NCBI RefSeq assembly: GCF_963921235.1
Contig: NC_086097.1
Coordinates: forward strand, 38,070,001-38,134,000
DNA: 64,000 nucleotides
Source: Mobula hypostoma
Lineage: Eukaryota
Reading direction: 5' to 3'
Part shown: piece after piece, positions 255 to 64,000 of the stretch
Layout: the number at the start of each line of letters is the position of its first letter
Position numbering within the stretch: position 1 is the stretch's first letter
Position numbers and translations under genes: made by a program
Notes under the pieces: generated by a model
What the model was told of the DNA's origin: nothing
What the model saw: only the letters and a program-made list of their open reading frames with translations
Databases searched by the model: none

Positions 255-785
255 GAAATTACAGCAGCGTCTTCAATTCCTGAGGGTGAGGTGAGCGAGG
301 CTCCCTCTCCACTCTCAGTATTTACAAGACCACCAAATCATAAACACAAGGGGTTCTGCTGATGTTGGAAATCCAGAGCGACCCACACAAAATGCTGGAG
401 GAACTCAGCAGGTCAGACAGCAACATGTGGAAATGTATAAGCAGTTAACATTTTGGGCTGAGACGGGACTGGAAAGGAAGGACAAAGATGCCACAAGGTG
501 GTCGGGGGCGGGGAGGAGGAGGACAAGCTAGGAGGTGATAGGTAATATCAAGTGGAGGTGTTGAAGTAAGAAGCTGAAGGTGGAAAAGTTAAAAGGCTGG
601 AGAAGAAGGAATCCGATGGGAGGGGAGATTAGACCATGGGCAAAAGGGAAGGAGGAATGGCACCAGGAGGAGCTGATGGGCAGGTGAGGAGAAGAGGAAA
701 GTGGCCAGAGTGGGGAAATGAAGTGAGAAGGGGAGGAGAAAAAGTTAACGAAAGTTGGAGAAATTGTTTTCCCAATGGGGAAAAC

Positions 786-4487: not shown

Positions 4488-4779
4488 GAACATTTTCACA
4501 AAAGACACATTGGGAAGAGATCTTGCCAAGATAGCTGTGGTAATTGGTAGGTTGATAACAGATATTGTTGGACAGATTTTCCTCTGGAGAAGGAGACAGA
4601 GAGATTGAGAAAGAGGAGAGAAGTCTCAGAAATGAACCAAGTGAATTTAGGGGCAGGGTGGAAATTGGAGGCAAAGTTGATGAAATTGTTGAGCTCAGCA
4701 TGGGTGCATGAAGTAGTGTTAATGTAGTGCAGAAAGACTGCGGCTCTCCTGACTGTACCTGTTCCCAGCCTCTGAACCT

Positions 4780-5436
4780 TTTGAAGTTATCTACTCTACC
4801 CATGCTCCTGATGCAGCCTCCTCTGCATTGTTGAGACCTGATAGAGATTGGGGGACCACTTTGTTGAGCATCTCTGCTCCATCCGCAAAAAGTGGGATTT
4901 CCTGGTGACCAACCATTTTAAATGCTGTCCCCGTTCTGACATGCTGGTCCATGGCTACCTCTTCTGCCATGAAGAGACCATTCTCAGGTTGGAAGAGCAG
5001 CACCTTATAATCCAGTCTGGGTTACCTCCAATCTGATAGCATGAGCATCGATTTCTCCAACTTCTGGTAATTTTCCTCCCTCCCCCTTCCTTCTTCTATT
5101 CCCCACTCTGGTCTCTTATCTCTTCTGCCTATCACCTCCCTTTGGTGACCATCCTCCTCCTTTCTTTTCTCCTATGGTTCACCCTCCTCTCCTATAAAGA
5201 TTCTTCTCCAGCCCTTCACTCTTTCTACCTATCACCTTTGGCTTCTTACTTTAACCCCATCCCCCACCGACTTGGTTTCATCTATCACCTTCTAGCTTGT
5301 CCTCCTTCCCTTTTTATTCTGGCATCATCCCCTCCCTTTCCAGTCCTGATGAAGGATCTTGGTCCAAAATGTCAACTGATCATTCATTTCCATAGATGCT
5401 TCTGACCTGCTAAGTATCTCCAGCATTCTGTGTGTG
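4780..5436 (+). mobile_element. Inverted PLE arm (GIY-YIG end + pseudo-LTR without the terminal tail)
   Basis: ORF 4848-5036 GDHFVEHL...LRLEEQHLI; degenerate hammerhead at 5342-5378; opposite orientation to 341-4730. Confidence 0.85.
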
Positions 5437-8235: not shown

Positions 8236-9592
8236 AGAATCAGGTTTAATATCACTGGCATATGTCACGCAATTTATTGCTTTTGAGACAGCAGAAAATT
8301 GCAATACATAATTATAGAAAATAAAAACAGTAAGTATTCAGTTTATAAATTAGTTAAATAAGTAATGTAAAAACAGAAATTTTAAAAAATAGTGAGGTGA
8401 TGTTCAGTCACAGACAAGAGAAAATCTGCAGATGCTGGAAAGGCAAGCAACACACAAAATGCTAGGGGAACTCAACAGGCCAAGTAGCATCTATGGAGAA
8501 GATTACAGTCAATGTTTCAGGCCGAGATCCTTCAGCAGTCCTGCCAAAGGGTCATGGCCGAAAAACGTCGACTGCTCTTTTCCATAGATGCTGCCTGGCC
8601 TGCTGAGTTCCTCCAGCATTTTGTGTCTGTTGTGAGGTGGTGTTCATGGGTTCCATTTAAATTCAGAATTAGGTGGCAGGAGGGAAGAAACTGTCCCTGA
8701 ATCACTGAGTGTGTGTCTTTAAGCTCCTGTACCTCCTCCCTGATGGTAGCAATGAAAACAAGGCATGACCTGAGTGATGGGGATCCAGCATCCAAAGTTA
8801 AAAGTAAATTTATTACAGAAGATTACTGAAATTTATTACTACCCTGAGATTATTTTCTTGTGGGCATTCACACTAAATACAAAGTAACAAAATAGAATGA
8901 ATAAAAAACTGCACACAGCAAAGACAAACAACTGATGTCCAAAAGACAAATCATGCAAATAGAAAAAAGAAAAATAAGCAAAATAATTAAATAAATACGT
9001 TAAAAGTATTGAGAACATGAGCTTGTAGCGTCCTTGAAAGTGAGTCTGCAGGTTATGGAGTCAGTTCAGCAGTGGGGTGAGTGAAGTTATCCACACTCAT
9101 TCAGGAGCCTGAAGGCTAATAATAACTGTTCCTGAAACCTGGTGGTGTGAGACCCAAGGCTCCTATACCTCCTTCCTGACTGCAGCAATGGGAAGAAAGC
9201 ATGGGCTGGATTGTGGGCGTCCTTGATGATGGATGCTGCTTTCCTCTGACAGCACACCCTGTAGATATGCTCAGTGCCGGGGAGGGCTTTACCATATCCA
9301 TTTCTTTTTGTAGGCTTTTACGTTCAAGGACATTGGTATTTCCATACCAGGCTGTGATGCAAGCAGTCAATATACTGTCCACCATGTGTCTATAGGGTTT
9401 GTCAGAAGTTTAAATGACATGCCGGATCTTCGCAAACTTCTAAGAAAGTAGAACTGCTGTCGTGCCTTCTTTGTAATGGCATCTACGTGATGGGCCCAGG
9501 ACAGATCCTCTGAAATGATAATGCTGAGGAATTGAAAGTTGCTGATCCTCTCCATCTCTGATACCATGATGAGTACTTGCTCATAGCTCACC
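8236..9592 (-). mobile_element. Two Rex1/Babar-type LINE 3' fragments (~8236-8790 and ~8795-9592)
   Basis: ORFs 9367-9606 (ERISNFQFLSIIISEDLSWAHHVDAITKKARQQFYFLRSLR) and 9116-9385 (SILTACITAWYGN). Confidence 0.8.
8407..8631. mobile_element. Fold-back mini-element made of two inverted PLE pseudo-LTR ends
   Basis: Arms are reverse complements meeting at ~8535-8540; 15-bp TSD gtgaggtg(a/g)tgttca at 8392-8406 and 8632-8646. Confidence 0.9.
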
Positions 9593-9724
9593 CACATTAG
9601 GTCCATAGCTTTCCAGGCCTTGGAATTTCAAACACCTGACACTCCTTCCTACATGTTGGCAGTCGTGTACTACTAGGAAAAACAGCACTTACAATTTGCT
9701 CGGAGGGATGCGCAGTCTAATAAG

Positions 9725-10447: not shown

Positions 10448-10706
10448 TTCCTATTTCCCTCCCGTCCCATAATCCTCTTATATCCCTTTTGCCAATCACC
10501 TGTCCAGCTCTTGGCTCCATCCCTCCCCCTCCTGTCTTCTCCTATCATTTCGGATCTCCCCCTCCCCCTCCCACTTTCAAATCTCTTACTAGCTCTTCCT
10601 TCAGTTAGTCCTGACGAAGGGTCTCAGCCTGAAACGTCGACTGTACCTCTTCCTAGAGATGCTGCCTGACCTGCTGCGTTCACCAGCAATTTTTGTGTGT
10701 GTTGCT
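10448..10706 (+). mobile_element. PLE pseudo-LTR, young subfamily
   Basis: Closely matches the reverse complement of 43065-43315. Confidence 0.9.
10607..10642 (+). ncRNA. Minimal type-I hammerhead ribozyme, intact core
   Basis: AGTC-CTGACGA-AGG(GTCTCAG)CCT-GAA-ACGT-C-GACT; predicted cleavage after C10638. Confidence 0.85.
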
Positions 10707-14166: not shown

Positions 14167-14573
14167 GGTCCAGATGGACCTCCATAGGGCATGCAACAAG
14201 GTCCTACAGCGTAGGCTGGTCCCGAAAGTTAAGACACATTAGATGCAAAGTGAGCTGGCTAAACTGGATCTAAAATTGGCATGGTGCTAGGAGGCAGAGG
14301 GTACTGTTGGTAGGATGCTATTCGAGTGGAAGTCTGTATTCAGTAATTGAGATTGGTGCTAGTTTGCTTGTTGATTGTGATGTGCATTAGTGACTTGGAT
14401 GTGAATGTGGGGAGTGTGATTAGTACATTTGCAGATGCTGCAGAAGTTGATAGCATTGTGAATAGCAAATAAGTTGTCTAAAACTACAGCAGAACATAGA
14501 TCAGATGGACCATTGGGCAGAGAACTGGCTGATGGAATGTAATCCCAACAAGTGAAAGGAGATACTTCACTTC

Positions 14574-15815
14574 TTACTTCAGTGGTTGGTAAGTTGATGG
14601 AGAAGATCCTGAGAGGCAGGATTTATGAACATTTGGAGAGGCATAATATGATTGGGAATAGTCAGCATGACTTTGACAAAGGCAGATCATGCCTTACGAG
14701 CCTGATTGAATTTTTTGAGGATGTAACTAAACACATTGATGGAGGTAGAGCAGTAGATGCAGTGAATATGGATTTCAGCAAGGCATTTGATAAGGTATCC
14801 CCTGCAAGGCTTATTGAGAAAGTCAGAAGGCATGGGATCCAAGAGGACATTGCTTTGTGGATCCAGAACTGGCTTGCCCACAGAAGGCAAAGTGGTTGTA
14901 GAGGGGTCATATTCTACATGGAGGTCAGTGACCAGTGGTGTGCCTCAGGGATCTGTACTCTTTGTGATTTTGATAAATGACCTGGATGAGGAAGTGGAGG
15001 AATGGATTAGTAAATTTGCTGATGACGCAAAGGTTGGGGGTGTTGTGGATAGTGTGGAGGGCTGTCAGAGGTTACAACGGGACATTGATAGGATGCAAAA
15101 CTGGGCTGAGAAGTGGCAGATGGAGTTCAACCCAGATAAGTGTGAGGTGGTTCATTTTAGTAGGTCAAATATGATGACAGAATATAGTGTTAATGGTAAG
15201 ACTCTTGGCAGCGTGGAGGATCAGAGAGATCTTGGGTTCCGAGTCCATAGGACACTCAAAGCTGCTGCGCAGGTTGATTCTATGGTTAAGAAGGCATACG
15301 GTGCATTGGCCTTCATCAATCGTGGGATTGAGTTAAGAGCCGAGAAGTAATTTTGCAGCTATATAGGACCCTGGACAGACCCCACTTGGAGTACTGTGCT
15401 CAGTTCTGGTTGCCACACTACAGGAAAGATGTGGAAACCATAGAAAGGGTGCAGTGGAAATTTACAAAGATGTTGCCTGGATTGGGGAGCATGCCTTCTG
15501 AGAATAGGTTGAGTGAACTTGGCCTTTTGTCCTTGGAGCGACAGAGGATGAGAGTCATTGATCGTATGGATGGCCAGAGGCTTTTTCCCAGGACTGAAAT
15601 GGCTAGCACGAGAGGGCACAGTTTTAAAGTGCTTGGAAGTAGGTACATTTTTAAGAGTCTCTTTTTAAGAGACTCCTGGATGGATGGGTACATGAAGCTT
15701 AAAAAAATAGAGGGCTATGGGTAACCCTAGGTAATTTCTAAGGTAAGGACATGTTCGGCAGAGCTTTGTGGGCCGAAGGGCCTGTATTGTGCTGTAGGTT
15801 TTCTATGTTTCTATG
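14574..15815 (+). mobile_element. Young CR1 LINE, 5'-truncated RT
   Basis: LTSVVGKLME, DFSKAFDKV, SGVPQGSVL, KFADD in ORFs 14552-14980 and 14787-15350; tail ttctatgtttctatg. Confidence 0.95.
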
Positions 15816-16958: not shown

Positions 16959-17179
16959 GCAGCGCACACAAAATGCTGGAGGAACGCAGCAGGTCAGGCA
17001 GCATCTACGGAAGAGTAAAGAGTCGACGTTTCGGGCTGAGATTAGTCCTGATGAAGGGTCTCAGCCCAAAACGTTGACTGTTTACTCTTTTCTATAGATG
17101 CTGTCTTGCCTACAGAATTCCTCCAGCATTTTGTGTGTGTCGCTTGGATTTCCAGCAACTGCAGGTTTTCTTGTCTCTA
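16959..17179. mobile_element. Second fold-back PLE mini-element
   Basis: Inverted arms meet at ~17041; hammerhead at 17044-17079 (GAAA>AAAA); 11-bp TSD gttat(g/a)ataaa at 16948-16958 and 17180-17190. Confidence 0.9.
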
Positions 17180-18992: not shown

Positions 18993-19130
18993 CGGTTTTG
19001 ATGAAGGGTCTCGACCTGAAATGTCGACTGTTCATTTCCTATCTAGATGCTATCTGACCTGCAAAGTTCCTCTGGCATTTCTTTTTGTATGTTGCTCCAT
19101 GCCGGCATCTGTGGTCTTTCTTGTGTCTCT
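18993..19130 (+). mobile_element. Short PLE terminal copy starting at a decayed hammerhead
   Basis: ttgatgaagggtctcgacctgaaatgtcgactg...gcatctgtggtctttcttgtgtct. Confidence 0.8.
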
Positions 19131-27079: not shown

Positions 27080-27613
27080 TAGCAGCACCTTCGCTCCATC
27101 CGACAAAAGCAGAACTTCCTGGTGGCCAAGCATTTTAATTCTCATGCCCAATCCCGTTCCAACATGCGCCAAGATGAGGCCATCCTCAGGGTGGAGGAGC
27201 AACACTTTATATTCTGTCTGGGTAGCCTCCAACCCGATGACATGAATATCAATTTTCTCCTTCTGGTTTAAAGAAAAGTCTCTCACCCTCCCCTCATTTT
27301 CTATTCCCCATTCTGGCCTCTTACCTCTTCTCACCTCCCCTGGGTCCTCCCCTCCTTCCCTTTCTTCTGTGGTGCACTGTCCTCTCCTATCAGATTCCTC
27401 CTTTTCCAGCCCTTGACCTTTCCAACCCACCTGGCTTCACCTAACACCTTCTAGCCATCATCCTTCCCCTCCCCCCTCCATTTTCTTTTTCGGTCTTCCC
27501 CCTTCCTTTCCTGTCCTGAAGAAGGGTCTCAGCCTGAAAGGTTGACTGCTTATTCATTTCCATAGATGCTGCCTGACCAGCTGAGTTCCTCCAGCATTTT
27601 GTACGTGTAACTC
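27080..27613 (+). mobile_element. PLE 3' end/pseudo-LTR
   Basis: ctcagggtggaggagcaacactttatattc; decayed hammerhead 27512-27547. Confidence 0.88.
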
Positions 27614-31403: not shown

Positions 31404-33424
31404 CATAGAAACGTAGAAAACCTACAGCACAATACAGGCCCTTCGGCCCACAAAGCTGTGCCGAACATGTCCCTACCTGAGAAATTACCTAGGGTTGCCC
31501 TCTATTTTTCTGAGCTCCACGTACCTGTCCAGGAGTCTTTTAAAAGACCCTATCGTATCCACCTCCACCACCGTCGCCGGCAGTCCATTCCACGCAGTCA
31601 CCACACTCTGCGTTTTTAAAAAAAAAACTTACCCCTGACATCTCCTCTGTATTTACTTCCAAGCACCTTAACACTGTGCCCTCTCATGTTAGCCATTTCA
31701 GCCCTGGGAAAAAGCCTCTGACGATCCACATGATCAACGCCTCTCATCTTATACACCTCTATCAGGTCACCTCTCATCCTCTATTACTCCAAGGAGAAAA
31801 GGCCAAGCTCACTCAACCTATTCTCATAAGGCATGCTCCCCAATACAGGCAACATCCTTATAAATCTCCTCTGCACCCTTTCTGTAGTTTCCACATTCTT
31901 CTTTTAGTGAGGCAACCAGAACTGAGCACAGTACTCCAAGTGGAGTCTGACCAGGGTCCTATATAGCTGCAAGATTACTTCTCGACTCCTAAACTCAGTC
32001 CCACGATTGATGAAGGCCAGTGCACCATATGCTTTCTTAACCACGGAGTCAACCTGCACAACAGCTTTGAGTGTCTTATGGACTCGGACCCCAAGATCCC
32101 TCTGATCCTCCACACCGCCAAGAGTCTTACCATTAATACTATATTCTGCCATCATATTTGACCTACCAAAATGAACCATCTCATACTTATCTGGGTTGAA
32201 CTCCATCTGCCACTGCTCAGCCCAGTTTTGCATCCTATCAATGTCTCGCTGTAACCTCTGACAGCCCTCCACATTATCCACAACACCTCCAACCTTTGTG
32301 TCATCAGCAAATTTACTAACCCATCCCTCCACTTCCTCATCCAGGTCATTTATAAAAATCACGAAGAGTAGGGGTTCCAGAACAAATCCCTGAGGCACCC
32401 CACTGGTGACCAATCTCTATGCAGAATATGACTCATCTACAACCACTCTTTGCCTTCTGTGGGCAAGCCAGTTCCAGATCCACAAAGCAATGTCCCCTTG
32501 GATCCCATGCCTCCTTACTTTCTCAATAAACCTTACATGGGGTACCTTGTCAAATGCCTTGCTGAAATCCATGTATACTTATATTCCGTCTGGGTAGCCT
32601 CCAAGCTGATGGCATGAACATTGACTTCTCTAACTTCCGTTAATGCCCCTCCTCCCATTCTTACCCCATCCCTTATTTATTTATTTATTTGTTGTTTTTT
32701 ATTTTTTCCTTTTTTCCCCTCTCTCTGTCCCTCTCACAATTACTCCTTGCCTGCTTTCCATCTTCCTCTGGCGCTCCCCTCCCCCTTTCTTTCTCCCTAG
32801 GCCTCCCGTCCCATGATCCTCTCCCTTCTCCAGCCTTGTATCCCTTTGGCCAATCAACTTTCCAGCTCTTAGCTCTATCCCTCCCCTTCCTGTCTTCTCC
32901 TATCATTTTGGATCTCCCCCTCCCCCTCCCACTTTCAAATCTACTATCCCTTCTTTCAGTTAGTCCTGTTGAAGGATCTCGGTCTGAAACGTCGACTGTG
33001 CTTCTTCCTATGGATGCTGTCTGGCCTGCTGCGTTCCACCAGCATTTTATGTGTGTTGCTTGAATTTCCAGCATCTGCAGATTTCCTCGTGTTTGCGTCC
33101 ATATACACTACGTCTATTGCTCTACTTTCATCAATGTGTTTAGTCACATCCTCAAAAAATACAATCAGGCTCATAAGGCACGACCTGCCTTTCGCAAAGC
33201 CATGCTGACTATTCCTAATCATATTATGCCTCTCCAGATGTTCATAAATCCTGCCTCTCAGGATCTTTTCCATCAACTTACCAACCACTGAAGTAAGACT
33301 CACTGGTCTATAATTTCTTGGGCTATCTCTACTCCCTTTCTTGAATAATCCGCAACCCTCCAGTCCTCCGGAACCTCTGCTGTCCCCATTGATGATTCAA
33401 AGATCATCGCCAGAGGCTGAGCAA
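31404..33424 (-). mobile_element. Young CR1 LINE (RT region) interrupted by a PLE
   Basis: ORFs 31904-32413 (SGVPQG, FADDTK) and 32956-33303 (SLTSVVGKLME); cccatag at 31402-31408 and 33425-33431. Confidence 0.95.
32580..33097 (+). mobile_element. PLE pseudo-LTR inserted in the CR1 RT VYMDFSKAFD motif
   Basis: 12-bp TSD tccatgtatact / tccatatacact at 32568-32579 and 33098-33109; hammerhead 32962-32997 with CTGTTGA core. Confidence 0.92.
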
Positions 33425-35886: not shown

Positions 35887-36870
35887 TAGAACATAGAACA
35901 GTAGAGCACAGTGTAGGCCCTTCGGCCCACAATGTTGTGCCGACCCTCAAATCCTGCCTCCCATATAACCCCCCCACCTTAAATTCCTCCATATACCTGT
36001 CTAGTAGTCTCTTAAACTTCACTAGTGTATCTGCCTCCCCCACTGACTCAGGCAGTGCATTCCACGCACCAACTACTCTCTGAGTCAAAAACCTTCCTCT
36101 AATATCCCCCTTGAACTTCCCACCCCTTACCTTAAAACTATGTCCTCTTGTATTGAGCAGTGGTGCCCTGGGGAAGAGCCGCTGGCTATCCACTCTATCT
36201 ATTTCTCTTATTATCTTGTACACCTCTGTCATGTCTCCTCTCATCCTCCTCCTCTCCAAAGAGTAAAGCCCTAGCTCCCTTAATCTCTGATCATAATGCA
36301 TACTCTCTAAACCAGGCAGCATCCTGGTAAATCTCCTCTGTACCCTTTCCAATGCTCCCGCATCCTTCCTATAGTGAGGCAACCAGAACTGGACACAGTA
36401 CTCCAATTGTGGCCTAACTAGTTTTATAGAGCTGCATCATTACATCGTGACTCTTAACTCTATCCCTCAACTTATGAAAGCTAACACCCCATAAGCTTTC
36501 TTAACTACCCTATCTACCTGTGAGGCAACTTTCAGGGATCTGTGGACATGTACCCCCAGATCCCTCTGCTCCTCCACACTACCAAGTATCCTGCCATTTA
36601 CTTTGTACTCTACCTTGGAGTTTGTCCTTCCAAAGTGTACCACCTCACACTTCTCCGGGTTGAACTCCATCTGCCACTTCTCAGCCCACTTCTGCATCCT
36701 ATCAATGTCTCTCTGCAATCCTCGACAATCCTCTACACTATCTACAACACCACCAATGTTTGTGTCGTTTGCAAACTTGCCAACCCACCCCTCTACCCCC
36801 ACATCCAGGTTGTTAATAAAAAACACAAAAAGTAGAGGTCCCAGAACAGATCCATGTGGGACCCCACTCG
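35887..36870 (-). mobile_element. Young CR1 3' part nested antisense in the older CR1
   Basis: ORFs 36467-36874 and 35864-36406 with well-preserved CR1 RT C-terminus. Confidence 0.95.
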
Positions 36871-37482
36871 TCATAATTCCCTGACCTTTACAGGGGTAGG
36901 AGCAGTCAGTACGGAAAGGTATTTAATTGGGGGAAGGTAAATAATGCTATTAAGCAGGAACTTGGGCGCGTAAATTGGCAACCGATGTACTCTAGGAAAT
37001 ACGCATTGGAAATGTGGGCGTTGCATTGGTTTCTGGATAGATTTCTTCCATTGAGGCAGGGAAAAGAAGGTCATGGTTGACAAGGGATGTGGAACATCTT
37101 GTCAAGTTGAAGAAAGAAGCTTACTTATGGTTTAGGAAGCAAGGATCAGACATGCTCTGGAGATTTATAGATTAGCCAGGAAGGAGCTTAAGAAGGAATG
37201 TAGGAGAACTAGAAGGGGACATGAAAAAGGCTTTGGTGAGTAGGATTAAGAAAAACCTTACAGCATTCTACACATACTGGAAGAACAGGAGGTTGACTAG
37301 AGTGAAGGTAGGACCAATCAGGGATAAGAGAGGAAACGTGCTTGAAATCCTTAAGTACTTTGCTTCAGTATTCGCCAGTGAGAGATCTTGACAAATGTGA
37401 AGTCAGCGTAGAACAGGCTAATATGCTGGAGCATGTCAAAATTAAGAAAGAGTAGGTGCTGGAAATTTGAAAAACATTAACA

Positions 37483-40442: not shown

Positions 40443-42465
40443 ATTCCATGGAATTGAAGAAACAGTCAACGTTTCAGGCCGAGACCCTTCATCGGGACTG
40501 AAAAGGAAGGGAGAGGATGTCAGAGTAAGAAGGTGGGGGGGGGGTGGTGGAGGAGGGGAAGGAGTACAAGCTCGAAGGTGATAGTGAACCCAGGTGGGTG
40601 GGAAAGGGGGTATGAAATAAGAAACTGGGAGGTGATACATGGAAAAGGTAAAGGGCTGGAGAAGAAAGAATCGGATGGGAGAGAAGAATGGACCATGAGA
40701 GAAAGGGAAGGTGGGGGGGGGTAACAGGGTGAGGTGAAAGGCAGGTGAGAAGAGGAAAGAAGAGGGGCAGATTGGGGAAATGAAGAAGGGGGAGGGGGGG
40801 AAATTACTGGAAGTTGGAGAAATTGATGTTTATGCCACCAGGTTGGAAGCTACCTAGATGGAATATAAGGTGTTGCTCCTCCAACCTGGGAGTTGCCTCA
40901 TTGTGGCAGAAGAGGAGCCTATGAACTGACATGTTGGAACGGGAATTGGAATTGAAGTGATTCACTACTGGGAAATCCTGCTTTTTGCGTTTGGAGCAAA
41001 GGTCCTCAACAAGGTGGAACCTCAGTCTACCTTGAGTCTCACCAATGTAGAGGAAGCTGCATCAGAAACATTGGATACAATATACAACCTCAGCAGATTT
41101 GCAGGTGAAGTGTTGCCTCATTTGGAAGGACTGTTTGGAGTCTTGAATGGAGGTGAGGGAGGAGGTGAATGGGCAGGTGTAGCACTTTTTCAGCTTGCAG
41201 GGCTAAGTGCCAGGAGGGAGATTATTGGGGAGGGACAAATGGACAAAGGAATCACAGAGGGAGCGGTCCCTGTGGAAAGTGGAGAGTGAGGGGTGGGGGG
41301 AGCTAAAGCTGTGTTTGGTGGTAGGGCTTTGTTGAAGATGGAGGAGTTTGCGGAGATGATATTTTGGATGCAGAGGCTCATGGATGGTAGATGAGGACAA
41401 GAGGAACTCTATCCCTGTTAAGGCAACAGGAAGATGGGGTAAGCGCAGATGTCCAGGAAATGGAGAAGATGTGGGTGAGGACAGCATCAATGGTGTAGGA
41501 AGGGGAATCCTGTTCTTTGAAGAAGGACATCTCTGATATCCTGCAAAAGAAAGCCTCGTCCTGGGAACAGATGAGGCAGAGACTAAGGAACTGAAATAAG
41601 GGAATGGCATAGGAAGAGGGACAGTCAAGTCAGCGATGACAGTCACAAACGAGAGAAAATCTGCAGATGGTGGAAATCCGAGCAACACACACAAAATGCT
41701 GGAGGAACTCAGCAGGCCAGGCAGCATCTGTGGAAAGTAGTACAGTCGACACTTCGGGACGACACCTTCAGCAGGACATAGCAATGACAATCGGAAGGTT
41801 TATAAAAGTGAGTCACCTGCGAATCTCTTTGTCGATCACCTTTGGTCCATCACAAAAAGCAGGATTTCCCAGTGGCCAGCCATTTCAATTTCAATTCCAA
41901 TTCCCTTTCCCATTCCGACATGTCGGACCATGGCCTCCTCTTCTGCAATGATGAGGTTGGGGGTGGAACACTAAATATTCCGTTTGGGTAGCCTCCAACT
42001 TGATGCCATGAACGTTGATTTCTCCAAATTTTGGTAACTTCTTTCCCTCCCCTTCCCTGTTCTTTATTTTCCCACTCTGCCCCTCCTCACCTCTTCTGCT
42101 TACCTACTTATCACCTCCCCCTGGTGATCCTCCTTCCCTTTCTCCACTCTTGGAGCACTCTTCTCTCCTGCCAGATTTTTTTCTTCTCCAGTTATTTATC
42201 TCTTGCATGTATCACCTTCCAGTTTCTTTCTTCATCTCACCTCCCTAACTTACCTGGCTTTACCTATCACCTTCTAGCCCTGACCGCCCCCCCTCACCTT
42301 TCCTATTCTGGCATCTTCCCCCTTCTTTCTAGTCCTGATGAAGCGTCTCAGCTTGAAACGACGGTTTATTTATTTTCATAGAAGCTGCCTGACCTGCTTT
42401 GTTTCTCTAGCATTTTGTGTGTGTTGCTCTGGATTTCCAGCATTTGCAGAATCTCTGGTGTTTAT
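40443..42465. mobile_element. PLE with inverted arms (- ~40443-41810; + ~41825-42465)
   Basis: Decayed hammerheads at 40464-40499 (-) and 42331-42366 (+); terminal tail gatttccagcatttgcagaatct only on the + arm. Confidence 0.85.
41642..41779 (-). mobile_element. ~138-nt PLE terminal mini-copy nested in a PLE
   Basis: TSD agcgatgaca / agcaatgaca at 41632-41641 and 41780-41789; ends at hammerhead stem I. Confidence 0.8.
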
Positions 42466-43036
42466 GCAATATCCATGCAGCTGAGGTGATGTAGAGTCTG
42501 CACATCCTATCTTACAGACTTAATGGGCCAAATGGCCTAATTCTGCTCCTATGTCTTATGGTCTTATAGTATTGAGGGGAGAGGTAATGAAATCAGTGCA
42601 TCCACATACTGGCTGTTGTATGTAAATTCAAAGAAGCTGCAGGATCTGATAAGATGGGTTTGATGTGAACTGTCTTTTATAATAGCTGTCATTAGTCAAG
42701 GACTCGTATTGGCTAGTCCAAAAGTGGCTTCAGAAGCTGACTTGGCAATGAATACCATCCGTTCGCTAGCTGCAATTGCTTGTTTATCTGTACATAGTTC
42801 AAAATGATAAAATTATTTTGGTAGAAAGTGCTGTACATTTTGTTTGGGCAAAGTACTTTTCAGAGCTGAGAAAGGGACAAAATTTGCAGTATCTGTATCC
42901 ATGTCGTACTAATGCTTACATCCAAATTGTGCCTTGGTTGAAATTGTAAACAGATGAGTGATTTAGATGTAGTAGAAATTACTGTTAAGTGTGTAATTCA
43001 GGTGTGTATCCAGAAAGATCAACAGGTGTTGATAAC

Positions 43037-44635
43037 AACAGGAATTCTGCAGATGCTGGAAATTCAAGCAACACACATCAAAGTTGCTGGTGAACGCAGC
43101 AGGCCAGGCAGCATCTGTAGGAAGAGGTGCAGTCAACGTTTCAGGCCGAGACCCTTCGTCAGGACTAACTGAAGGGAGAGTGAGTAAGGGATTTGAAAGT
43201 TGGAGGGGGAGGGGGAGATCCAAAATGATAGGAGAAGACAGGAGGGGGAGGGATGGAGCCAAGAGCTGGACAGGTGATAGGCAAAAGGGATACGAGAGGA
43301 TCATGGGACAGGAGGTCTGGGAAGAAAGACAAGGGGGGTGGGGAGACCCAGAGGATGGGCAAGAGGTATATTCAGAGGGACAGAGGGAGAAAAAGGAGAA
43401 TGAGAGAAAGAATGTGTGTATAAAAATAAGTAACAGATGGGGTACGAGGGGGAGGTGGGGCCTTAGCGGAAGTTAGAGAAGTGGATGTTCATACCATCAG
43501 GTTGGAGGCTACCCAGACGGAATATAAGGTGTTGTTCCTCCAACCTGAGTGTGGCTTCATCTTTACAGTAGAGGAGGCCATGGATAGACATGTCAGAATG
43601 GGAATGGGATGTGGAATAAAAATGTGTGGCCACTGGGAGATCCTGCTTTCTCTGGCGGACAGAGCGTAGATGTTCAGCAAAGTGGTCTCCCAGTCTGCGT
43701 CGGGTCTCGCCAATATATAAAAGGCCACATCGGGAGCACCGGACGCAGTATATCACCCCAGTCGACTCACAGGTGAAGTGTTGCCTCACCTGGAAGGACT
43801 GTTTGGGGCCCTGAATGGTGGTAAGGGAGGAGGTGTAAGGGCATGTGTAGCACTTGTTCTGCTTACACGGATAAGTGCCAGGAGGGAGATCAGTGGGGAG
43901 GGTTGGGGGGGACGAATGGACAAGGGAGTTGCGTAGGGAGCGATCCCTGCTGAATGCAGAGAGAGCGGGGGAGGGAAAGATGTGCTTAGTGGTGGGATCC
44001 CGTTGGAGGTGGTGGAAGTTACGGAGAATAATATGTTGGACCCGGAGGCTGGTGGGGTGGTAGGTGAGGACCAGGGGAACCCTATTCCTAGTGGGGTGGC
44101 GGGAGGATGGAGTGAGAGCAGATGTACGTGAAGTGGGGGAGATGCGTTTAAGAGCAGAGTTGATAGTGGAGGAAGGGATGCCCCTTTCTTTAAAAAAGGA
44201 AGACATCTCCCTCGTCCTAGAATGAAAAGCCTCATCTTGAGAGCAGATGCGGCGGAGGCAGAGGAATTGCGAGAAGGGGATGGCGTTTTTCCAAGAGACA
44301 GGGTGAGAAGAGGAATAGTCCAGATAGCTGTGAGAGTCAGTAGGCTTATAATAGACATCAGTGGATAAGCCGTCTCCAGAGACAGAGACAGAAAGATCTA
44401 GAAAGGGGAGGGAGGTGTCGGAAATGGACCAGGTAAACTTGAGGGCAGGGTGAAAGTTAGAGGCAAAGTTAATAAAGTCAACAAGTTCTGCATGCGTGCA
44501 GGAAGCAGCGCCAATGCAGTCCTCGATGTAGTGAAGGAAAAGTGGGGGACAGATACCAGAATAGGCACGGAACATAGATTGTTCCACAAACCCAACAAAA
44601 AGGCAGGCATAGCTAGGACCCATACCGGTGCCCAT
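43037..44635 (-). mobile_element. Young 5'-truncated PLE: uninterrupted RT C-half + GIY-YIG endonuclease + pseudo-LTR
   Basis: MGTGMGPSYACLF, YIED, LPFLD, VYYKPT, C-x4-C-x2-C, GVIYCVRCSRCGLLYIGET..RLGDHFAEH; perfect 15-bp TSD acaggtgttgataac at 43022-43036 and 44636-44650. Confidence 0.97.
43131..43166 (-). ncRNA. Minimal type-I hammerhead ribozyme, intact core, GUU triplet
   Basis: Minus strand AGTC-CTGACGA-AGG(GTCTCGG)CCT-GAA-ACGT-T-GACT. Confidence 0.8.
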
Positions 44636-46289
44636 ACAGGTGTTGATAACCCATTTCAGGATACATTCACATATCTGACTGCATGGTGATTCTTGAGGTT
44701 CTTGCAAAGCTACGTCCAGGTTCTTCGATGTTAATCCCAGCAGGTGACACCTTCCACTTTCCCTTGAATATGTGCTTGATAGGTCTCCTGCACACTGACA
44801 CATCTCGCCTCCTAAGCAAGACCTCTCACACAGCATCTCAGGTTTGTGGAGCCCACTATCTTCCCAGTTGCACAATTTGTCTTCTAGCTGGTTGCAATCA
44901 TCTCCACAGACAGCTTCCATTAATTGATGTTGCCACAATGGACTTTGCTTTTAAAGAGTTCCGGCTGGCTATAAGCAGTATATGTGAGTCTAAACTGGCA
45001 AGGACAACACACAAAATCAAGCCTCCTGATGATGCAGTCGTGCAAGTGGGGAGGTCGAAAGTTGAACTGGTTATTACTGAGTGCTCACTGACTGGGTGAC
45101 AAGATCCAGGTGTGGTGAATTATACAAATTCAATCCTTACACCCATCTTCTGGTCTTTTCTGCTTTGTTCTCCAGGTGGATTATAGAACATTACAGCCCA
45201 CGATGTGCTGACGTTTTAACCTACTCTAAGATCACTCTAACCCTTCCCTCCCACATAGCCCTCTTTTTTTTTTGCATTGTGATTACTCATCACATCTTTA
45301 GCATATGTTTTTCATTTAGCTGGATATTATCTTTAGATTAATTTCCACTTAAAGCACAAATAGTATTTTCTTAAAGTGAAAAATATGCATTCAGAAATTA
45401 AAGAACATCTCAAATTTAGCTATTTAACTGCTAAATATAGAAAATGGTCATTTACGAACTGTATTACAGTGTACATTTGGCTGAATATATGCCAGATTTT
45501 TAGGTAATACAAGCCCCTCAAATAACGCTTCTAAGATTGAGCAAGATACTGCAGATATTTGCTTTTTTTTCCCTCTCAAAATATAAAACCACACACTCTC
45601 TCTGGCACGTCACTTGTAAACAAGTTCAGCAGCCATTTTGTAAAAGGAAATTTTTGCTGTGTTCCATTGTTACGTTGAGTGTTTCACTAACATGGGAGGC
45701 TATCAATATTGTTGACGCTACCAGCATTTTTAAGCCCTTCAATTCATGAAACTTTCTGATTTTTGAAGCAAGCTGCCTCCATTTCAAAGACCCTGCTTGA
45801 GTCTATGTTTTCCATGTTATACACAGAATGAGAATGTATTGCATCTGCAGCACTAAGATAAGACAATTGTAAAGAATGTTTGGCAAAATAAATCCCCTCC
45901 CCTTGTACACTTTGTACAACACGCTGACTATTGAATGTCCTGCAGTTCAGTCGATTCCACAGACAACAGATGTCCATGCATACTTACCATGGATAATTAG
46001 CTAGATGCATTAATTTGGTTTTATTAAATGAGCTTTCAGCTTCCAAACACATTCAGTGAAAGATAATGCTTCTGTGTATGTTCTGTTCCTGAATTTACCT
46101 GTTTCAGTGCAACACCAGGTTTTGCCTTTTTTGTCAGTTACTTTTATTCCTGAAAAACTATGCCGTCATGGCGGTGGGGTATGACTTCCTGTCTTTATCA
46201 TCTGTTCAGTCTAAGTCAATAGCAAGTAGCATTTTGGTAGATGAACAAGGGGAAGATAGTGGATTCTAAGCAGTGGCATTTCTGTATAA

Positions 46290-46884: not shown

Positions 46885-49000
46885 GAGTCAAGTCAAGTTT
46901 ATTGTTATTTAATTATATACGTGTATGTAATGTCTATAGAAACTAGATGTTTCTCCGAACCAGGGTGTAAAACACAGTCATACACATGACACACATAACA
47001 CATGATTAGTTATGAAGGGTAAAATCTACAGGTGAATCACACATAAATAACAAACTGAAATGCATCAATATTAAATATTATAAGGTGCAAAGCAGGTTAA
47101 CCAGTGGCACTTTGAATACGATGTGGCTGGGAGTTCAAAAATCTAATGGCCTGGGGGAAGAAACTGTTCTCATCATGACTGTTCTTGTTTTTATGCACTG
47201 GAGTCTCGCACCTGTTGGTAGAAAGTCAAAGATGGGTGGGATCCCTAATAATACCAAGGGCCCTGCGTGCTCAACACTCCTAATCAATGTCCCGGATGGA
47301 TGGTATGGAGACCCCTATCATCCTCTCAGCTGTTCTCACAGTCCTTTGTAGGGACTTCTGATCCGATGCTTGACTGCTCCCATACCAGATGGAGATGCAG
47401 CTTGTCAGGGCACTCTCAGTGGTGCTCCTGTAAAACACAGTTAAGATGGTGGGGCGGGAAGGTGGAGAGCCTTGCTTGCTTCAGTTTTCCTAGGAAGAGG
47501 AGGCGCTGCTGTGCCTTCTTGTACAGGGAGGTGATGATAGGGGACCTCCTTATCATCTGTGATGTAAACTCCTAGGAACTTGGTTCACTTAACTCTCTCT
47601 ATGGAGAGGAGGATGGTTCATCTGTACCTTTTTGAAGTCCACAATGATTTCCTTTGTCTTCTCCATGTTCAGACTTGGGTTGTTCTTCTCACACCAATCG
47701 ACCAGCCGCTCCTCTTCCTCTCTATACAGCCACTTTTGTGTCATCCGCAAACTTGGTGGCCCGGTTTGAGCTGGATCCTGTGACACAGTCATGCACCGGC
47801 AGTGTGAAGACAGCAGGCTGAACACACAACAGCAGTATGAACAGTAGTGGGCCGAACACACAGCCTTGGTGAGGGGGGGGGGGCGGTGCCACCAGTGTTC
47901 AGCGTAGTGTGACGAGAGACGTCACTGCCCACACGGACTGACTGTGGCCTTACTGTTGTGAAGTCCAGTATCCAATTGCAAAGGCAAGTGTTGAGAACCA
48001 GCGAGGACAGTTGTCCCACCAGTTTCTGGGGTATGATGGTGTTGAATGCCGAACTGAAGTCCATAAACAGTAGTCTGGCATATGACACCCCATTTTCCAG
48101 GTGGGACAGAACAGAGTGGAGGGCAGAGGCTATTGCAATGTCAGTGGATCAATTTGAGCATTAAGTGAATTGGAAAGGGTCCTGTCTAACTGGGAGAGAG
48201 GCTTTAATGTGTTCCATGACCAGCTGTTCAAATCATTTCATTGTGGTTGATAATGACACCTGATAACAGTCATTTAGGCAGGAGGTGCTGCCTTTGGCAC
48301 TGGAATAATGGTTGCCTCCTTGAAAACTGAGGGGACAGTGAACTGTTCCAGAGAGATGTTGAATATATCCGTCAGCTAGGCTGCACTGTCTTTCAGAACC
48401 CAACCTGGTATATTATCGGTTCCTGCAGCTTTGCGTAGGTTGACTCTGGCCAGGGTCTTCCTCACCTTAGCTTCAGCCAGACAGAGTTTCTGCCCCCCTG
48501 GGGAGAAGGGTGCCTCCCTCACCAGCACTTTATTCTGCACATCAAACCAGGTGTAGAAGACATTCGGCTTTTCGGGGAGTGAAGCATCCTGGTCACTAAC
48601 GCGCAAGGTAGACTTGTAGTCTGTAATCCCCTGAATTTCCTGCCACATGTGCCTCGTGTCTCTGGTATCACAGAAGTGGTTGTACATTCTCTGAGAGAGT
48701 TCCTATTTCACCTTCCTGATGGAGCAGGAAAGGACATTTCTTGCTTCCCTGAAAAATGCCGCATCCCGCGATCTAAAGACAGCATCACAATTCTTCAGCC
48801 ATGCATGGACCTCTGCTGTAAGCCATGGCTTCTGATTTTCCTTCAGATGGATGTGTTTTGTGATGATAACATCCTCAGTACACTTCTCTATGTAACGGGT
48901 CACAGAATCCACATTTTCCTTGATGTTAACATGGTTGCCATAGGTAGGAGCCTCCCTGAACATTCTCCAAGATAGAGCCTAATAGCCAAGGGTGGTCCAG
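46885..49000 (-). mobile_element. Rex1/Babar LINE, ~2.1 kb, frameshifted RT
   Basis: [51 protein letters not shown] in ORFs 48703-48963, 48376-48687, 47789-48088, 47589-47861; aataaacttgacttgac tail. Confidence 0.92.
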
Positions 49001-49930: not shown

Positions 49931-50600
49931 AAAGAAAATTAATTTGTTTGTCCAATGTCATACATGATTTTAATTATTTCCTTCTTGATAACGTGCTTTT
50001 GGACACCAGAAAATCCAACTGCTGATTGTTGTGAAGAAACAAAACGGCCTGAAGTAGCTTCTGATTAGATAGAACGTGTATTTCACAAGTGTAGTGATGG
50101 AGACAATGGTAGAAATGTTGCTTACTTAATTTTGGTTCTGCTGTCTTAATTGAAGACACTACTGTAATTGGTATGACTTCAGATCTTTTTCCAGGGGGAG
50201 TTTTGCGACGCAATAGTTGAATATGAACCAGAGCAGACACCCTCCTGTGGATGAGGTAAACTGGTTCCATTGGTAGTGGTGTTCATTAAAAATCCCTTGG
50301 CATTATTCAACAAAAACTGCATTATATTCTCCCGAGCCCCAAGTGACTCAAATAAATCTGATTAAATTTTTACTTTTGAAATCAAATGTTCAAAATGCTG
50401 CCAGATTTTCCATTAAAGCTGATATTGTTATTAATGTAATTTATTATGTTATTTAGATATTTATGAAACACAATAATTAGGATGTGTATATTTTATAAAA
50501 TTGAGTAATTGTCATTATAACCCCAAATCCTTATTTTAGTTGAAGAACAAATTATGTGCAATGGCTGTTAGTATTGGAGAATGGACACCTTACAATCATA

Positions 50601-50636
50601 AGTCCTGACGAAGGGTCTCGGCCTGAAACGTCGACT
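50601..50636 (+). ncRNA. Minimal type-I hammerhead ribozyme, intact core
   Basis: AGTC-CTGACGA-AGG(GTCTCGG)CCT-GAA-ACGT-C-GACT; predicted cleavage after C50632. Confidence 0.88.
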
Positions 50637-50738
50637 GCGCCTCTTCCTATAGATGCTGCTTGGCCTGCTGCGTTCACCAGCAACTTTGATGTGTGTTGCT
50701 TGAATTTCCAGCATCTGCAGAATTCCTGTTGTTTGCGT
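50601..50738 (+). mobile_element. 138-nt PLE terminal mini-element starting exactly at an intact hammerhead
   Basis: 11-bp TSD tta(c/a)aatcata at 50590-50600 and 50739-50749; near-identical to the reverse complement of 43037-43166. Confidence 0.92.
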
Positions 50739-50964
50739 TTAAAATCATAGAAATGGGTCATTTTGGCACATCCTCACTGACTTCCCTGTACTAATCTCAC
50801 TTGCAGACATAAGGACTGCATCCTATATTGCCTATTTGAGCATCTATCTAAATGCCTCTTAAATGTAGTAATTGTATCCGTTTCTACCAACCCTTCGGGC
50901 AGTGCATTCCAGATATCAATCACTTGCTGTGCAAAATAAACTTGAGCCTCAGATCCTCTTTAAA

Positions 50965-57224: not shown

Positions 57225-58372
57225 CTTCGAAGTACATATATGTAACCATATACAACCATGAGATTAATTTTCTTTCGAGCATGCTTAATAAATCCATAGC
57301 AGAATCAATGAAAGTCCACACCAACTTGGGCATTCAACCAGTGTACAAAAGACAACAAACTGTGCAAATACAAAAAGAAAGAAATATTAATAAACAAATA
57401 AGAAATAAATATCAAGAACATGAGATGAAGAGAACTTGAAAGTGAATCTATAGGCTATGGGAACATTTTGGTGATGGGGCAAGTGAAGTTATCCGTTTTG
57501 GTTCAGGAGCCTGATGGTTGGTTACTGTTAATAACTGTTCCTGAACCTGGAGGTGTGAGTCCTGAGGATCTTGTACCTTATTCCTGATGGCGGCAGCGAC
57601 AAGAGAGCATGCCCTGAGTGGTGGGGGTCCCTGATATGGATCTACTTTCCTGCGATGGCACATTGTGTAGATGTGCTTGATGTTGGGGAGGGCTTTACCT
57701 GTGGTGGACTGGGCCATATCCACTACTTTTTGTAGGGTTTCCCGTTCAAGGGCATTTGTGTTTCCATACCAGACTATGATGCAGCCATTCAACGTATTCT
57801 CCGCTACACATCCAAAGAAATTTGTGAACATTTTAGATGGCATGCCGAATCTTCGCAAACTTCTAAAGTGTAGACACTGCTGTGCTTTCTTCATAATTGC
57901 ACTTACGTGCTGAGCCCAAAAAGGGTCCTCCAAAACGATAACACTGAAGAATTTAAAGTTGCTGACCTTCTCCATCTCTGATCCCTGATGTGGACTGGCT
58001 CATGGACCTCCAGTTTCCTCCTTGAAGTCAATAATCATCTCCTCGGTTTTGCTGACATTGAGTAAGAGGTTGTTGCTATGGCACCACTCAGCCTGATTTT
58101 CAGTCTCCCTCCTGTATGCTGATTCATCACCACCTTTGGTTCAGCCTACGACAGCGGTGTCAACAACAAACTTGACTATGGCCTTGGAGCAATAAGTGTA
58201 AAGTGAGTAAAGCAGGAGGCTAAATACCACAGCCTTCTGGTGCACCTGTGCTGATGGAAATTGTGGAAGAGATGTTGTTGCCAATCCAAACTGACTGGGA
58301 TCTGCAAATGAGGAAATCGAGGGTCTAATTGCATAAGGAGGTACTGAAGCCAAGGTCCTGAAGCTTATTGAA
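57225..58372 (-). mobile_element. Rex1/Babar LINE 3' part
   Basis: ORF 57448-57975 EKVSNFKFF..KKAQQCLHFRSLRRFG..CIIVWYGN; 58141-58353 SLLLYSLYT..KFVVDTAVVG. Confidence 0.88.
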
Positions 58373-63199: not shown

Positions 63200-64000
63200 C
63201 TCTAAAGTGAGGCTTTGTTTGGTTGCATGACAGCCCTGGGGAAAAAGCTGTTTCTGAGTCTGGATGCCCGTACTGGATGGGTGGAAATAGAACAGGCGAT
63301 TACTGGTGTGGGATGAGTCCATCATGATTTTGCAAGCCCAATGTAGACATCATGAGTTGCAGATGGTTTCCATATCTGGTAGTTGTGTCTCACTGATGTT
63401 CTGGGCAGTTCTGATCACTCGCTGAAGTGCTTTTTGGCCAATCTTCTTGCAGTTCGTGTACCATGCTGTCATGTAGTAGGTCAGCAGGCTCTCAGTTACA
63501 CATCGATAAAGGTTTACCAGCAGCATTGGAGGCAGATTTGCTCTCTTTAAACTCCTAAGATTGTATAGGCGCTGTTGAGCCTTCCCTACCGTCGAGGTGT
63601 TTGTGGTCCAGGTGAGCTCCTCTGTGATGTTCACTCCCAAAAACTTAAAGCTGGAGACCTTTTCCATTGGTTCACTGTTTGAGTAGTGGAGCTTATTCAT
63701 TTGATTACCTGAAACTGATCATCATTTCTTTGGTTTTTTAAATGCTGAGTGAAAGATTATGGTTATTGCACCATTCAGACAGTTTCTGCATCTCCTCCCT
63801 CTATGCTGTTTCATTGTTATTTGTAATTAATCCAATCACTGCGGTGTCATCTGCAAATTTGGTGGCACAGGCAGGGGCACAGTCATGGGTGAAAAAGTTG
63901 TAAAAGACTGGGTGCAGTACACATCCCTGCAGTGCATTGGTGTTCAGGGTCAGGGAGGTCGATGTGTACTTGCCTAGTCTGACTGGGTGTGATTGGCAAG
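63200..64000 (-). mobile_element. Rex1/Babar LINE RT C-terminal part, continuing past the window edge
   Basis: ORF 63350-63700 EKVSSFKFLGVNITEELTW..KAQQRLYNLRSL; antisense KFADDT (gtgtcatctgcaaattt) at ~63844. Confidence 0.9.

Follow-up and report, generated by a model that had tools for sequence, protein, structure and literature searches.

The window, by which we mean the whole 64,000-nucleotide stretch of DNA analysed here, carries a 36-base motif, AGTCCTGACGAAGGGTCTCGGCCTGAAACGTCGACT, at 50601-50636 (+), together with two copies that each differ from it by one change, at 10607-10642 (+) and 43131-43166 (-). All three follow the arrangement AGTC-CTGANGA-stem II-GAAA-CGT-H-GACT with the core unbroken, and the motif is very probably the minimal type-I hammerhead (min-HHR) module of a Penelope-like retrotransposon (PLE). 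The initial annotation had reported intact copies at these positions, and placed the expected RNA ends after 10638 and 50632. The copies are borne out by pattern and descriptor matches that are absent from shuffled and simulated sequence, and the cleavage positions are the correct ones for C17. The intact copies are the following.

50601..50636, + strand: min-HHR motif, intact; cleavage site after the C at 50632; helix I AGUC/GACU, core CUGACGA...GAAA, helix II GGGU/GCCU with loop CUCG, helix III palindrome ACGU
10607..10642, + strand: min-HHR motif, intact; fourth helix II pair U-A instead of U.G; cleavage site after 10638
43131..43166, - strand: min-HHR motif, intact; H17 is U (GUU cleavage triplet)

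Helix I gains a further U.G pair in copies that have their natural upstream sequence. The core CUGACGA is followed by one unpaired A and then by helix II, which consists of four pairs (G.U, G-C, G-C and U.G) closed by CUCG; after it come GAA, A15.1-CG-U16.1 and C17. The hammerhead core, C3 U4 G5 A6 N7 G8 A9 ... G12 A13 A14 A15.1 ... U16.1 H17, is complete in the three copies. Helix III, reduced in one motif to a single A-U pair over a 2-nt loop, cannot form in the monomer, and two motif copies could build it from two 5'-ACGU-3' strands. With helix I at 4-5 bp, helix II at 4 bp and no monomer helix III, the motif is not a three-helix type-I hammerhead in a single molecule. It does have the short helix I (4-5 bp), the unpaired base between A9 and 10.1 and the palindromic 15.2-16.2 of PLE min-HHRs, and the initial annotation's likening of it to a minimal type-I hammerhead whose helix III is the palindrome ACGU agrees with the available text of PMC4209133. 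Two further traits of PLE min-HHRs are lacking: the G10.1-C11.1 pair, since the three intact window copies read GCCU-GAAA and have G.U, and the long helix II (7-8 bp), in place of which there are 4 bp and a CUCG loop. The G10.1.U11.1 form occurs in 80 of the first 100 genome copies listed and GCCC-GAAA (C11.1) in 20; an older subfamily keeps GCCC-GAAA, and C11.1 sits within a CpG. The U at 11.1 in the youngest and most abundant lineage reads as a product of CpG decay from an ancestral C.

The strict pattern CTGANGA-N6-30-GAAACGTHGAC has three matches in the window, and none of 100 dinucleotide-preserving shuffles has any; the 36-mer with up to three mismatches has four window matches vs 0 expected. 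Our own min-HHR descriptor, which asks for the core, a palindromic helix III and minimum lengths of 4 bp for helix I and 3 bp for helix II, finds the same three sites in the window and none in 50 Markov simulations. The scan with standard hammerhead models envisaged in the initial annotation did not yield these sites: the Rfam hammerhead models gave 0 matches at gathering score over the 64-kb window, and around 50601 (50400-50900) Rfam at E<=10 gave two matches, neither of them a hammerhead.

A whole-window scan identified 15 distinct segments derived from the motif, three intact and 12 decayed or truncated. The count of about 13 given in the initial annotation was slightly low: the sites it listed are real, and every decayed one aligns to the motif, but the inverted partial arm 17021-17047 (-) had been missed. 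The hammerhead core is broken in these 12 segments.

5342..5377, + strand: decayed hammerhead of the older 'CCAGTCC' family; G12 to A, helices III and I damaged
8507-8538 (-) and 8537-8573 (+): decayed head-to-head pair, the two 5' ends meeting at the motif
17021..17079: head-to-head pair; the - arm (17021-17047) begins within helix II, the + arm (17044-17079) begins 2 nt upstream of the motif and has G12 to A
18999..19029, + strand: decayed hammerhead without the helix I 5' strand and C3
23080..23100, - strand: 3' half of the hammerhead alone
27513..27547, + strand: hammerhead with core letters retained and the helix III palindrome gone (AGGU)
32962..32997, + strand: decayed hammerhead, A6 to U, in a ~516-bp older copy at 32578-33093
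40464..40499, - strand: decayed hammerhead, U4 to C
41744..41777, - strand: heavily decayed hammerhead at the 5' end of a ~130-bp copy, 41648-41777
42331..42360, + strand: decayed hammerhead of the older family, U16.1 to A

The twelve are either truncated or broken, mostly at the four CpG sites of the motif, which is where the broken copies mainly diverge. Among 11 diverged window copies, the least conserved motif positions are C8, C/T31, A7, U23 and C28. A very decayed tail of the older PLE family, 72% identical to the 42331 copy, also lies at 339-545 (-), its hammerhead too eroded for scoring.

The three intact motifs lie within copies of one PLE family.

50601..50733, + strand: 133-bp 5'-truncated PLE copy that starts at the first base of the hammerhead and stops at the long-form 3' end
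10458..10706, + strand: 249-bp 5'-truncated PLE copy with the short-form 3' end, without the ~32-nt tail
43034..44644, - strand: 1.6-kb 5'-truncated PLE copy with the C-terminal part of the reverse transcriptase (RT), a CX4CX2C linker and a GIY-YIG endonuclease (EN)

By BLAST, the 50601 copy is 97% and the 10607-bearing copy 92% identical to the copy at 43034-44644 (-). In the latter, the stop codon (43463-43465) is followed by a CT-rich 3' UTR of ~430 nt, and the hammerhead lies ~300 nt past the stop and ~100 nt short of the 3' end. The open reading frame (ORF) 43463-44950(-) has visible RT motifs and, at its end, a GIY-YIG match (Pfam E=0.0075, 17 bits, below the curated cut-off) preceded by CKQNKCYTC. 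Genome homology in this frame begins at residue 103, so that the window copy is 5'-truncated, and a search upstream for more of the element met just a different repeat at 46886-47300. That repeat is itself abundant (4,849 first-look candidates, 76-82% identity).

Open frames of 1,043 and 1,054 aa exist at other genome loci. The 1,043-aa frame, at locus L060, matches Pfam RVT_1 at E=3e-5 (24.3 bits, below the curated cut-off), and both frames match GIY-YIG at E=1e-3 (19.6-19.7 bits, below the curated cut-offs). A protein database search returned 1,050 homologues at E<=1e-10 among 8,000 scored, with precomputed domains that include PF00078 and PF01541; the best named homologues are uncharacterised proteins of a bamboo shark (69-72% identity). 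The full-length ORF had no match in a PDB sequence search, nor by tblastn against phage sequences, an unlikely place for a PLE ORF. L060 is a tandem in which the 3' UTR of the upstream copy continues into the next 1,043-aa frame; its hammerheads, at 3196 and 6709, flank that frame in direct orientation 3,513 nt apart, and the first ATG of the ORF lies ~165 nt downstream of the hammerhead. Together with the RT/GIY-YIG context of the window copy at 43034-44644(-), this places the hammerhead in the terminal repeat, as the initial annotation had supposed in assigning the motifs to PLE termini.

Other features of the family are likewise those of PLEs. First, as in EN+ PLEs, a single ORF carries RT and then a C-terminal GIY-YIG, with Pfam scores under the curated cut-offs. 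Second, the RT-EN linker has the CX2-5CxxC signature that marks Neptune/Nematis (PMC8557442, available text). A single ORF of this make-up, with a CX4CX2C linker, would tentatively place the family with the Neptune-like type. Third, the copies show a pseudo-LTR partial tandem, an adjacent inverted 5'-truncated copy and a 30-40 bp tail at one end. Two 3' termini are found among copies, ~32 nt apart and ~69 and ~101 nt past the cut site. Every head-to-head pair examined has one long-end arm (0 to -7; -17 in one pair) and one short-end arm (-34 to -48), from which it follows that the ~32-nt tail is present at one end only. Among the first 100 genome sites listed, 15 neighbouring pairs lie within 3 kb of each other, 12 of them head-to-head, two tail-to-tail and one direct. 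The anatomy in print comprises a pseudo-LTR, an adjacent inverted 5'-truncated copy, a one-sided 30-40 bp tail and a hammerhead near the 3' end, and our one-end tail and inverted 5'-truncated copies agree with it (PMC8557442; PMC11167929, both in their available text). All known PLEs are said to carry such hammerhead motifs (PMC4209133 and PMC6155905, in the portions available).

Much of the window is filled by several LINE-type fragments with RVT_1, zf-RVT and an ALKBH8_N-like C-terminal domain, including one open RT frame of 579 aa.

3178-4917(-), 2080-2652(-), 14543-15350(+), 31907-32416(-): LINE-type fragments
36470-36922(-), 9370-9627(-), 57448-57999(-), 63353-63718(-): LINE-type fragments

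Genome-wide, the 31-nt core pattern (with Y/R allowed at CpG sites) has 58,730 matches in 3.476 Gb, and the reversed pattern has 0. This density, ~1.08 per 64 kb or about one per 59 kb, makes three exact cores in the window unremarkable. For the PLE ORF there are 238,512 first-look candidates. Young copies are mutually 96-99% identical, and the three cores are intact because the copies are young. A second, older family has CC for TT before AGTCC and a different upstream region, with the same hammerhead; although the motif contains four mutable CpGs, both of these diverged families have kept all 13 core letters. Identities of the 11 diverged window copies to the young family are 0.78 far upstream, 0.65 over the 36 nt directly before the motif, 0.80 in the motif (0.83 outside CpGs), 0.62 over the 14 nt directly after it and 0.78 from +50 to +99 downstream. 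The conservation of core over flanks, on which the initial annotation had staked its reading, is thus found: the motif exceeds its adjoining flanks, but it is no better conserved than the +50-99 nt or far upstream segments. The signal of constraint is modest and only partly shown, and single genomic copies evolve neutrally. The window copies are dead 5'-truncated insertions, not working parts of anything. Sequence, context, copy number and decay pattern were all observed directly.

Folding predictions suggest that the motif on its own is not active. The minimum-energy fold of the 36-nt monomer (-10.0 kcal/mol) is an inactive rod in which the core GACG pairs with the cleavage-site CGUC; the form with helices I and II, at -6.0 kcal/mol, is 4 kcal/mol less stable. 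The ACGU self-duplex between two motifs amounts to 4 bp and -1.7 kcal/mol. When 76 nt of natural sequence are folded, the minimum-energy structure has the upstream CCCUUC paired to GAAGGG, which belongs to the core and helix II, and is no more stable than shuffles (z=+0.56). A predicted inactive monomer accords with PMC4209133, whose available text describes single min-HHRs as inactive and dimers or trimers as weakly active at high Mg2+.

If the motif works as a min-HHR, then, going by the literature, a single copy could not form helix III, and two would pair via the ACGU palindrome to give a double hammerhead, with cleavage after C17 only in the paired form. The element transcript from tandem copies would carry two direct hammerheads one unit (3.5 kb) apart, the hammerhead region of full-length tandem copies doubling as the upstream pseudo-LTR, and cleavage would trim multimeric or read-through element RNA. 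Dimer-dependent cleavage and the role it may have in the element's life cycle are what we infer only. In four sequence runs, consisting of contigs of uncertain kind that carry no information on starts, ends or strand, the PLE tail occurs in thousands of contigs of three runs and in 19 of the fourth, which says nothing on expression or cleavage.

That folding does not favour the active form, and that the most prolific young lineage has G.U at 10.1-11.1 (80 of the first 100 copies listed), can also be taken to mean that the ribozyme is weak or vestigial and that the motif was retained for another role: as a 5'-terminal or promoter-proximal module, for recognition by RT/EN, or as a stretch on which cDNA snaps back. 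We consider this rather unlikely. The literature, within the available text, points both ways. Hammerhead-dead mutants of PAc (Poseidon of Anolis carolinensis) still insert normally in vitro, and in Anolis no RNA-seq ends fall at the hammerhead cut site (PMC11167929); in addition, PLEs of the Naiad group do well without hammerheads, and it has been suggested there that hammerheads may simply be parasites of PLEs (PMC8557442). Against these, the PAc motif does cleave in vitro, and C3/G8 mutations affect it as they would a true hammerhead (PMC11167929); moreover, the PLEs of plants, fungi and protists have canonical active hammerheads at the corresponding position (PMC4209133). Retention of 13/13 core letters in two diverged families despite the four CpGs also argues for the ribozyme.

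The 5' ends of copies bear on the same question. With A0 as the first base of the motif, cleavage falls after C31, and G32 is next. In a BLAST sample drawn from the window and other genome loci, 8 of about 85 3'-anchored copies start at -2 to +1, within a continuum of 5' ends that runs from -1470 to +62. Copies starting at A0 are seen in the window at 50601, 41777(-) and 17042, and elsewhere at loci L022, L036, L037, L085-L088, L091 and L097-L099. Genome-wide breaks, counted as exact anchors preceded by two non-consensus bases and confounded by subfamilies, number 1,902 at -1, 11,314 at 0 and 5,721 at +1, against 67,343 continuous TTAGTCC... sequences; among the first 100 listed at 0, 60 belong to the CC family and 24 have CTGACGA. 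Twenty breaks of the CTGACGA type at 0 were inspected: nine are plain truncations with unrelated flank, nine are head-to-head with an arm from A0, and the other two are continuous copies of the other family. The pile-up at A0 suggests that RNA has a 5' end there or that RT stops strongly at this base, and so many exact starts would also suit a motif kept for something other than cleavage.

A second excess was seen at G32, where breaks (531 at +32) are 2-4 fold more frequent than at the neighbouring positions (95 at +30, 258 at +31 and 120 at +33). We considered it as a fossil of ribozyme cleavage and do not take it as clean evidence of this, as most of 20 inspected sites turned out to be head-to-head junctions. 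The first 20 breaks at +32 comprise about 13 such junctions, many with GAC or GACT microhomology, three point or indel variants, 2-3 plain truncations and 1-2 complex or uncertain cases.

Head-to-head junctions cluster in and around the motif, in the window (8507-8573, 17021-17079) as well as at loci L062-L081. Their microhomology comes from self-complementary parts, namely AGTC/GACT, GAC of GTCGAC and CCCTTC/GAAGGG, as would be expected for snap-back self-priming of cDNA. The complementarity of the upstream CCCTTC to GAAGGG also makes a DNA hairpin, which fits the junction pairs (-10,+4), (-15,+9) and (-9,+9). The use of AGTC/GACT and GAC inside the motif again counts in favour of a non-cleavage role.

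The start of the motif has a further possible function. The initiator consensus is YYANWYY, and TTAGTCC at the motif start fits it, which would likewise suit a promoter-proximal module. As side observations, CTCTTCCTTCAG|TTAGTCC resembles a 3' splice site, and the CTTACTCACTCTTCCTTCAG|TT that precedes the motif (43167-43190 (-) and equivalents in full-context copies), ending 2-3 nt upstream of helix I, has the look of a branch point followed by a polypyrimidine tract and a 3' splice site; the 3' UTR showed no convincing 5' splice site. The resemblance recalls the Penelope of D. virilis, an intron of which ends at helix I (PMC4209133, available text). A recurrent genome variant, CCTGACTG, has the CUGA box fused to the helix I 3' strand, with the entire core and helix II gone; it apparently arose via deletion between two GAC repeats.

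These junctions raise the possibility, which we put forward tentatively, that the first base of the hammerhead is the 5' terminus of the element RNA, perhaps set by transcription starting on the initiator-like TTA(+1)GTCC. In that case the transcript would begin with the ribozyme, and the cDNA end would snap back on the helix I strands AGTC/GACT, the GTCGAC palindrome or CCCTTC/GAAGGG and prime itself, giving head-to-head copies; the module would in this way shape insertion architecture at the DNA level, independently of what it may do as RNA. If true, this would provide an origin for the inverted head-to-head copies typical of PLEs, so far unexplained.

Returning to the min-HHR of a PLE as the preferred identity of the motif, one may ask whether short copies (that of 133 bp at 50601, for example) form a separate non-autonomous family of retrozyme- or SINE-like kind that borrows the PLE machinery. 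The pile-up of 5' ends at the first base of the motif could be read in this way, and non-LTR retrozymes have been reported as derivatives of PLE pLTRs (bioRxiv 10.64898/2026.07.22.740005, available text). However, the short copies are 95-99% identical to ORF-bearing tails and have no sequence of their own, their 5' ends belong to the continuum from -1470 to +62, and the window holds no tandem array. An array does exist at L082 (G000:C1:147387700-147389700), where a 327-bp unit is repeated 2.6 times at 99% identity, with a 101-bp tail fragment from A0 per unit and three hammerheads in direct orientation. Retrozyme-like in look, it is probably a local duplication, given that the remaining 226 bp of the unit are unrelated flank. 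Altogether, a separate short family is improbable.

The last proposal comes from the initial annotation: if a host pre-mRNA contained the copies at 10607 and 50601, these might pair with each other and cut the intron, which, if true, would bear on gene expression. It has next to no likelihood. In its favour, the two copies share the + strand, an intact core and the ACGU palindrome, and intronic hammerheads are known in amniote genes (PMC6155905, available text). Against it, they are 39,994 nt apart, their sole pairing is 4 bp at -1.7 kcal/mol, the monomers favour an inactive fold, min-HHR dimers cleave poorly in vitro even when adjacent (PMC4209133, available text), and no host exon or gene was found in the 136 window ORFs scanned; moreover, with an exact core every ~59 kb on average, trans-pairing that worked would cut up the majority of long introns. 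For a host gene, Pfam was run on 136 of the 186 window ORFs of at least 75 aa, a search that short exons would escape, and gave transposon domains only (RVT_1, zf-RVT, ALKBH8_N and GIY-YIG), plus one TBCA_PH match below the cut-off; the other 50 ORFs are mostly overlapping frames within repeats already examined.

The association of hammerheads with PLEs has been in print since 2014 (PMC4209133, available text), and what we report is a known association, correctly recognised in a genome that holds it in unusual abundance, with no new principle. With 58,730 exact cores from one family, this genome naturally documents PLE insertion junctions on a very large scale. The weakened 10.1-11.1 pair in the most successful lineage adds doubt that PLE spread needs full ribozyme activity. 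The clustering of junctions around the motif offers a testable idea for the formation of PLE inverted repeats, and of all these results only the anatomy of the junctions might open a new direction.

Compared with the Rfam model Hammerhead_1 (RF00163), the motif has the same catalytic core and type-I topology; the model, however, expects a helix III hairpin, and around 50601 the motif goes unmatched even at E<=10. As in the double hammerheads of newt satellite 2 and avocado sunblotch viroid (Forster et al. 1988, cited in PMC6155905, available text), activity would require two copies in one RNA with an extended helix III; there the copies are adjacent in a multimeric transcript, whereas here 40 kb separate the nearest intact copies that share a strand. 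With animal non-LTR retrozymes the motif shares type-I hammerheads related to PLE pLTRs, in short non-coding units moved by the PLE machinery (PMC7229834; bioRxiv 10.64898/2026.07.22.740005, in their available text). Retrozymes differ in forming tandem arrays that give rise to small circular RNAs; in place of tandem arrays of short hammerhead units, the window has dispersed single or head-to-head copies only.

Closer parallels are found among PLEs. In PAc (Frangieh et al. 2024, PMC11167929, available text), too, the hammerhead lies ~90-100 nt upstream of internal reverse-transcription starts, and two start sites ~30-40 nt apart explain the 'tail', comparable to the ~32 nt by which 3' ends differ here. 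Unlike in our family, where the first ATG is ~165 nt downstream, the ORF of PAc starts within the hammerhead, and PAc is a Poseidon, whereas the linker motif here suggests the Neptune clade. The nearest relatives are the min-HHRs of Cervera and de la Pena (PMC4209133, available text), which have the same type-I topology, helix I of 4-5 bp and unpaired base after A9, the same dimer-only helix III made of A15.1-U16.1 around a palindrome, and the same location in the PLE terminal repeat, with thousands per vertebrate genome, mostly as single motifs in truncated copies and often as opposite-strand pairs 100-700 bp apart. Theirs have a helix II of 7-8 bp as against 4 bp here, and a conserved G-C at 10.1-11.1 where most young copies here have G.U. 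Furthermore, the 58,730 exact cores counted here come from one family of very low internal sequence diversity, unlike the min-HHRs of that study, for which totals of about 4,000 in coelacanth and 9,000 in Xenopus were reported.
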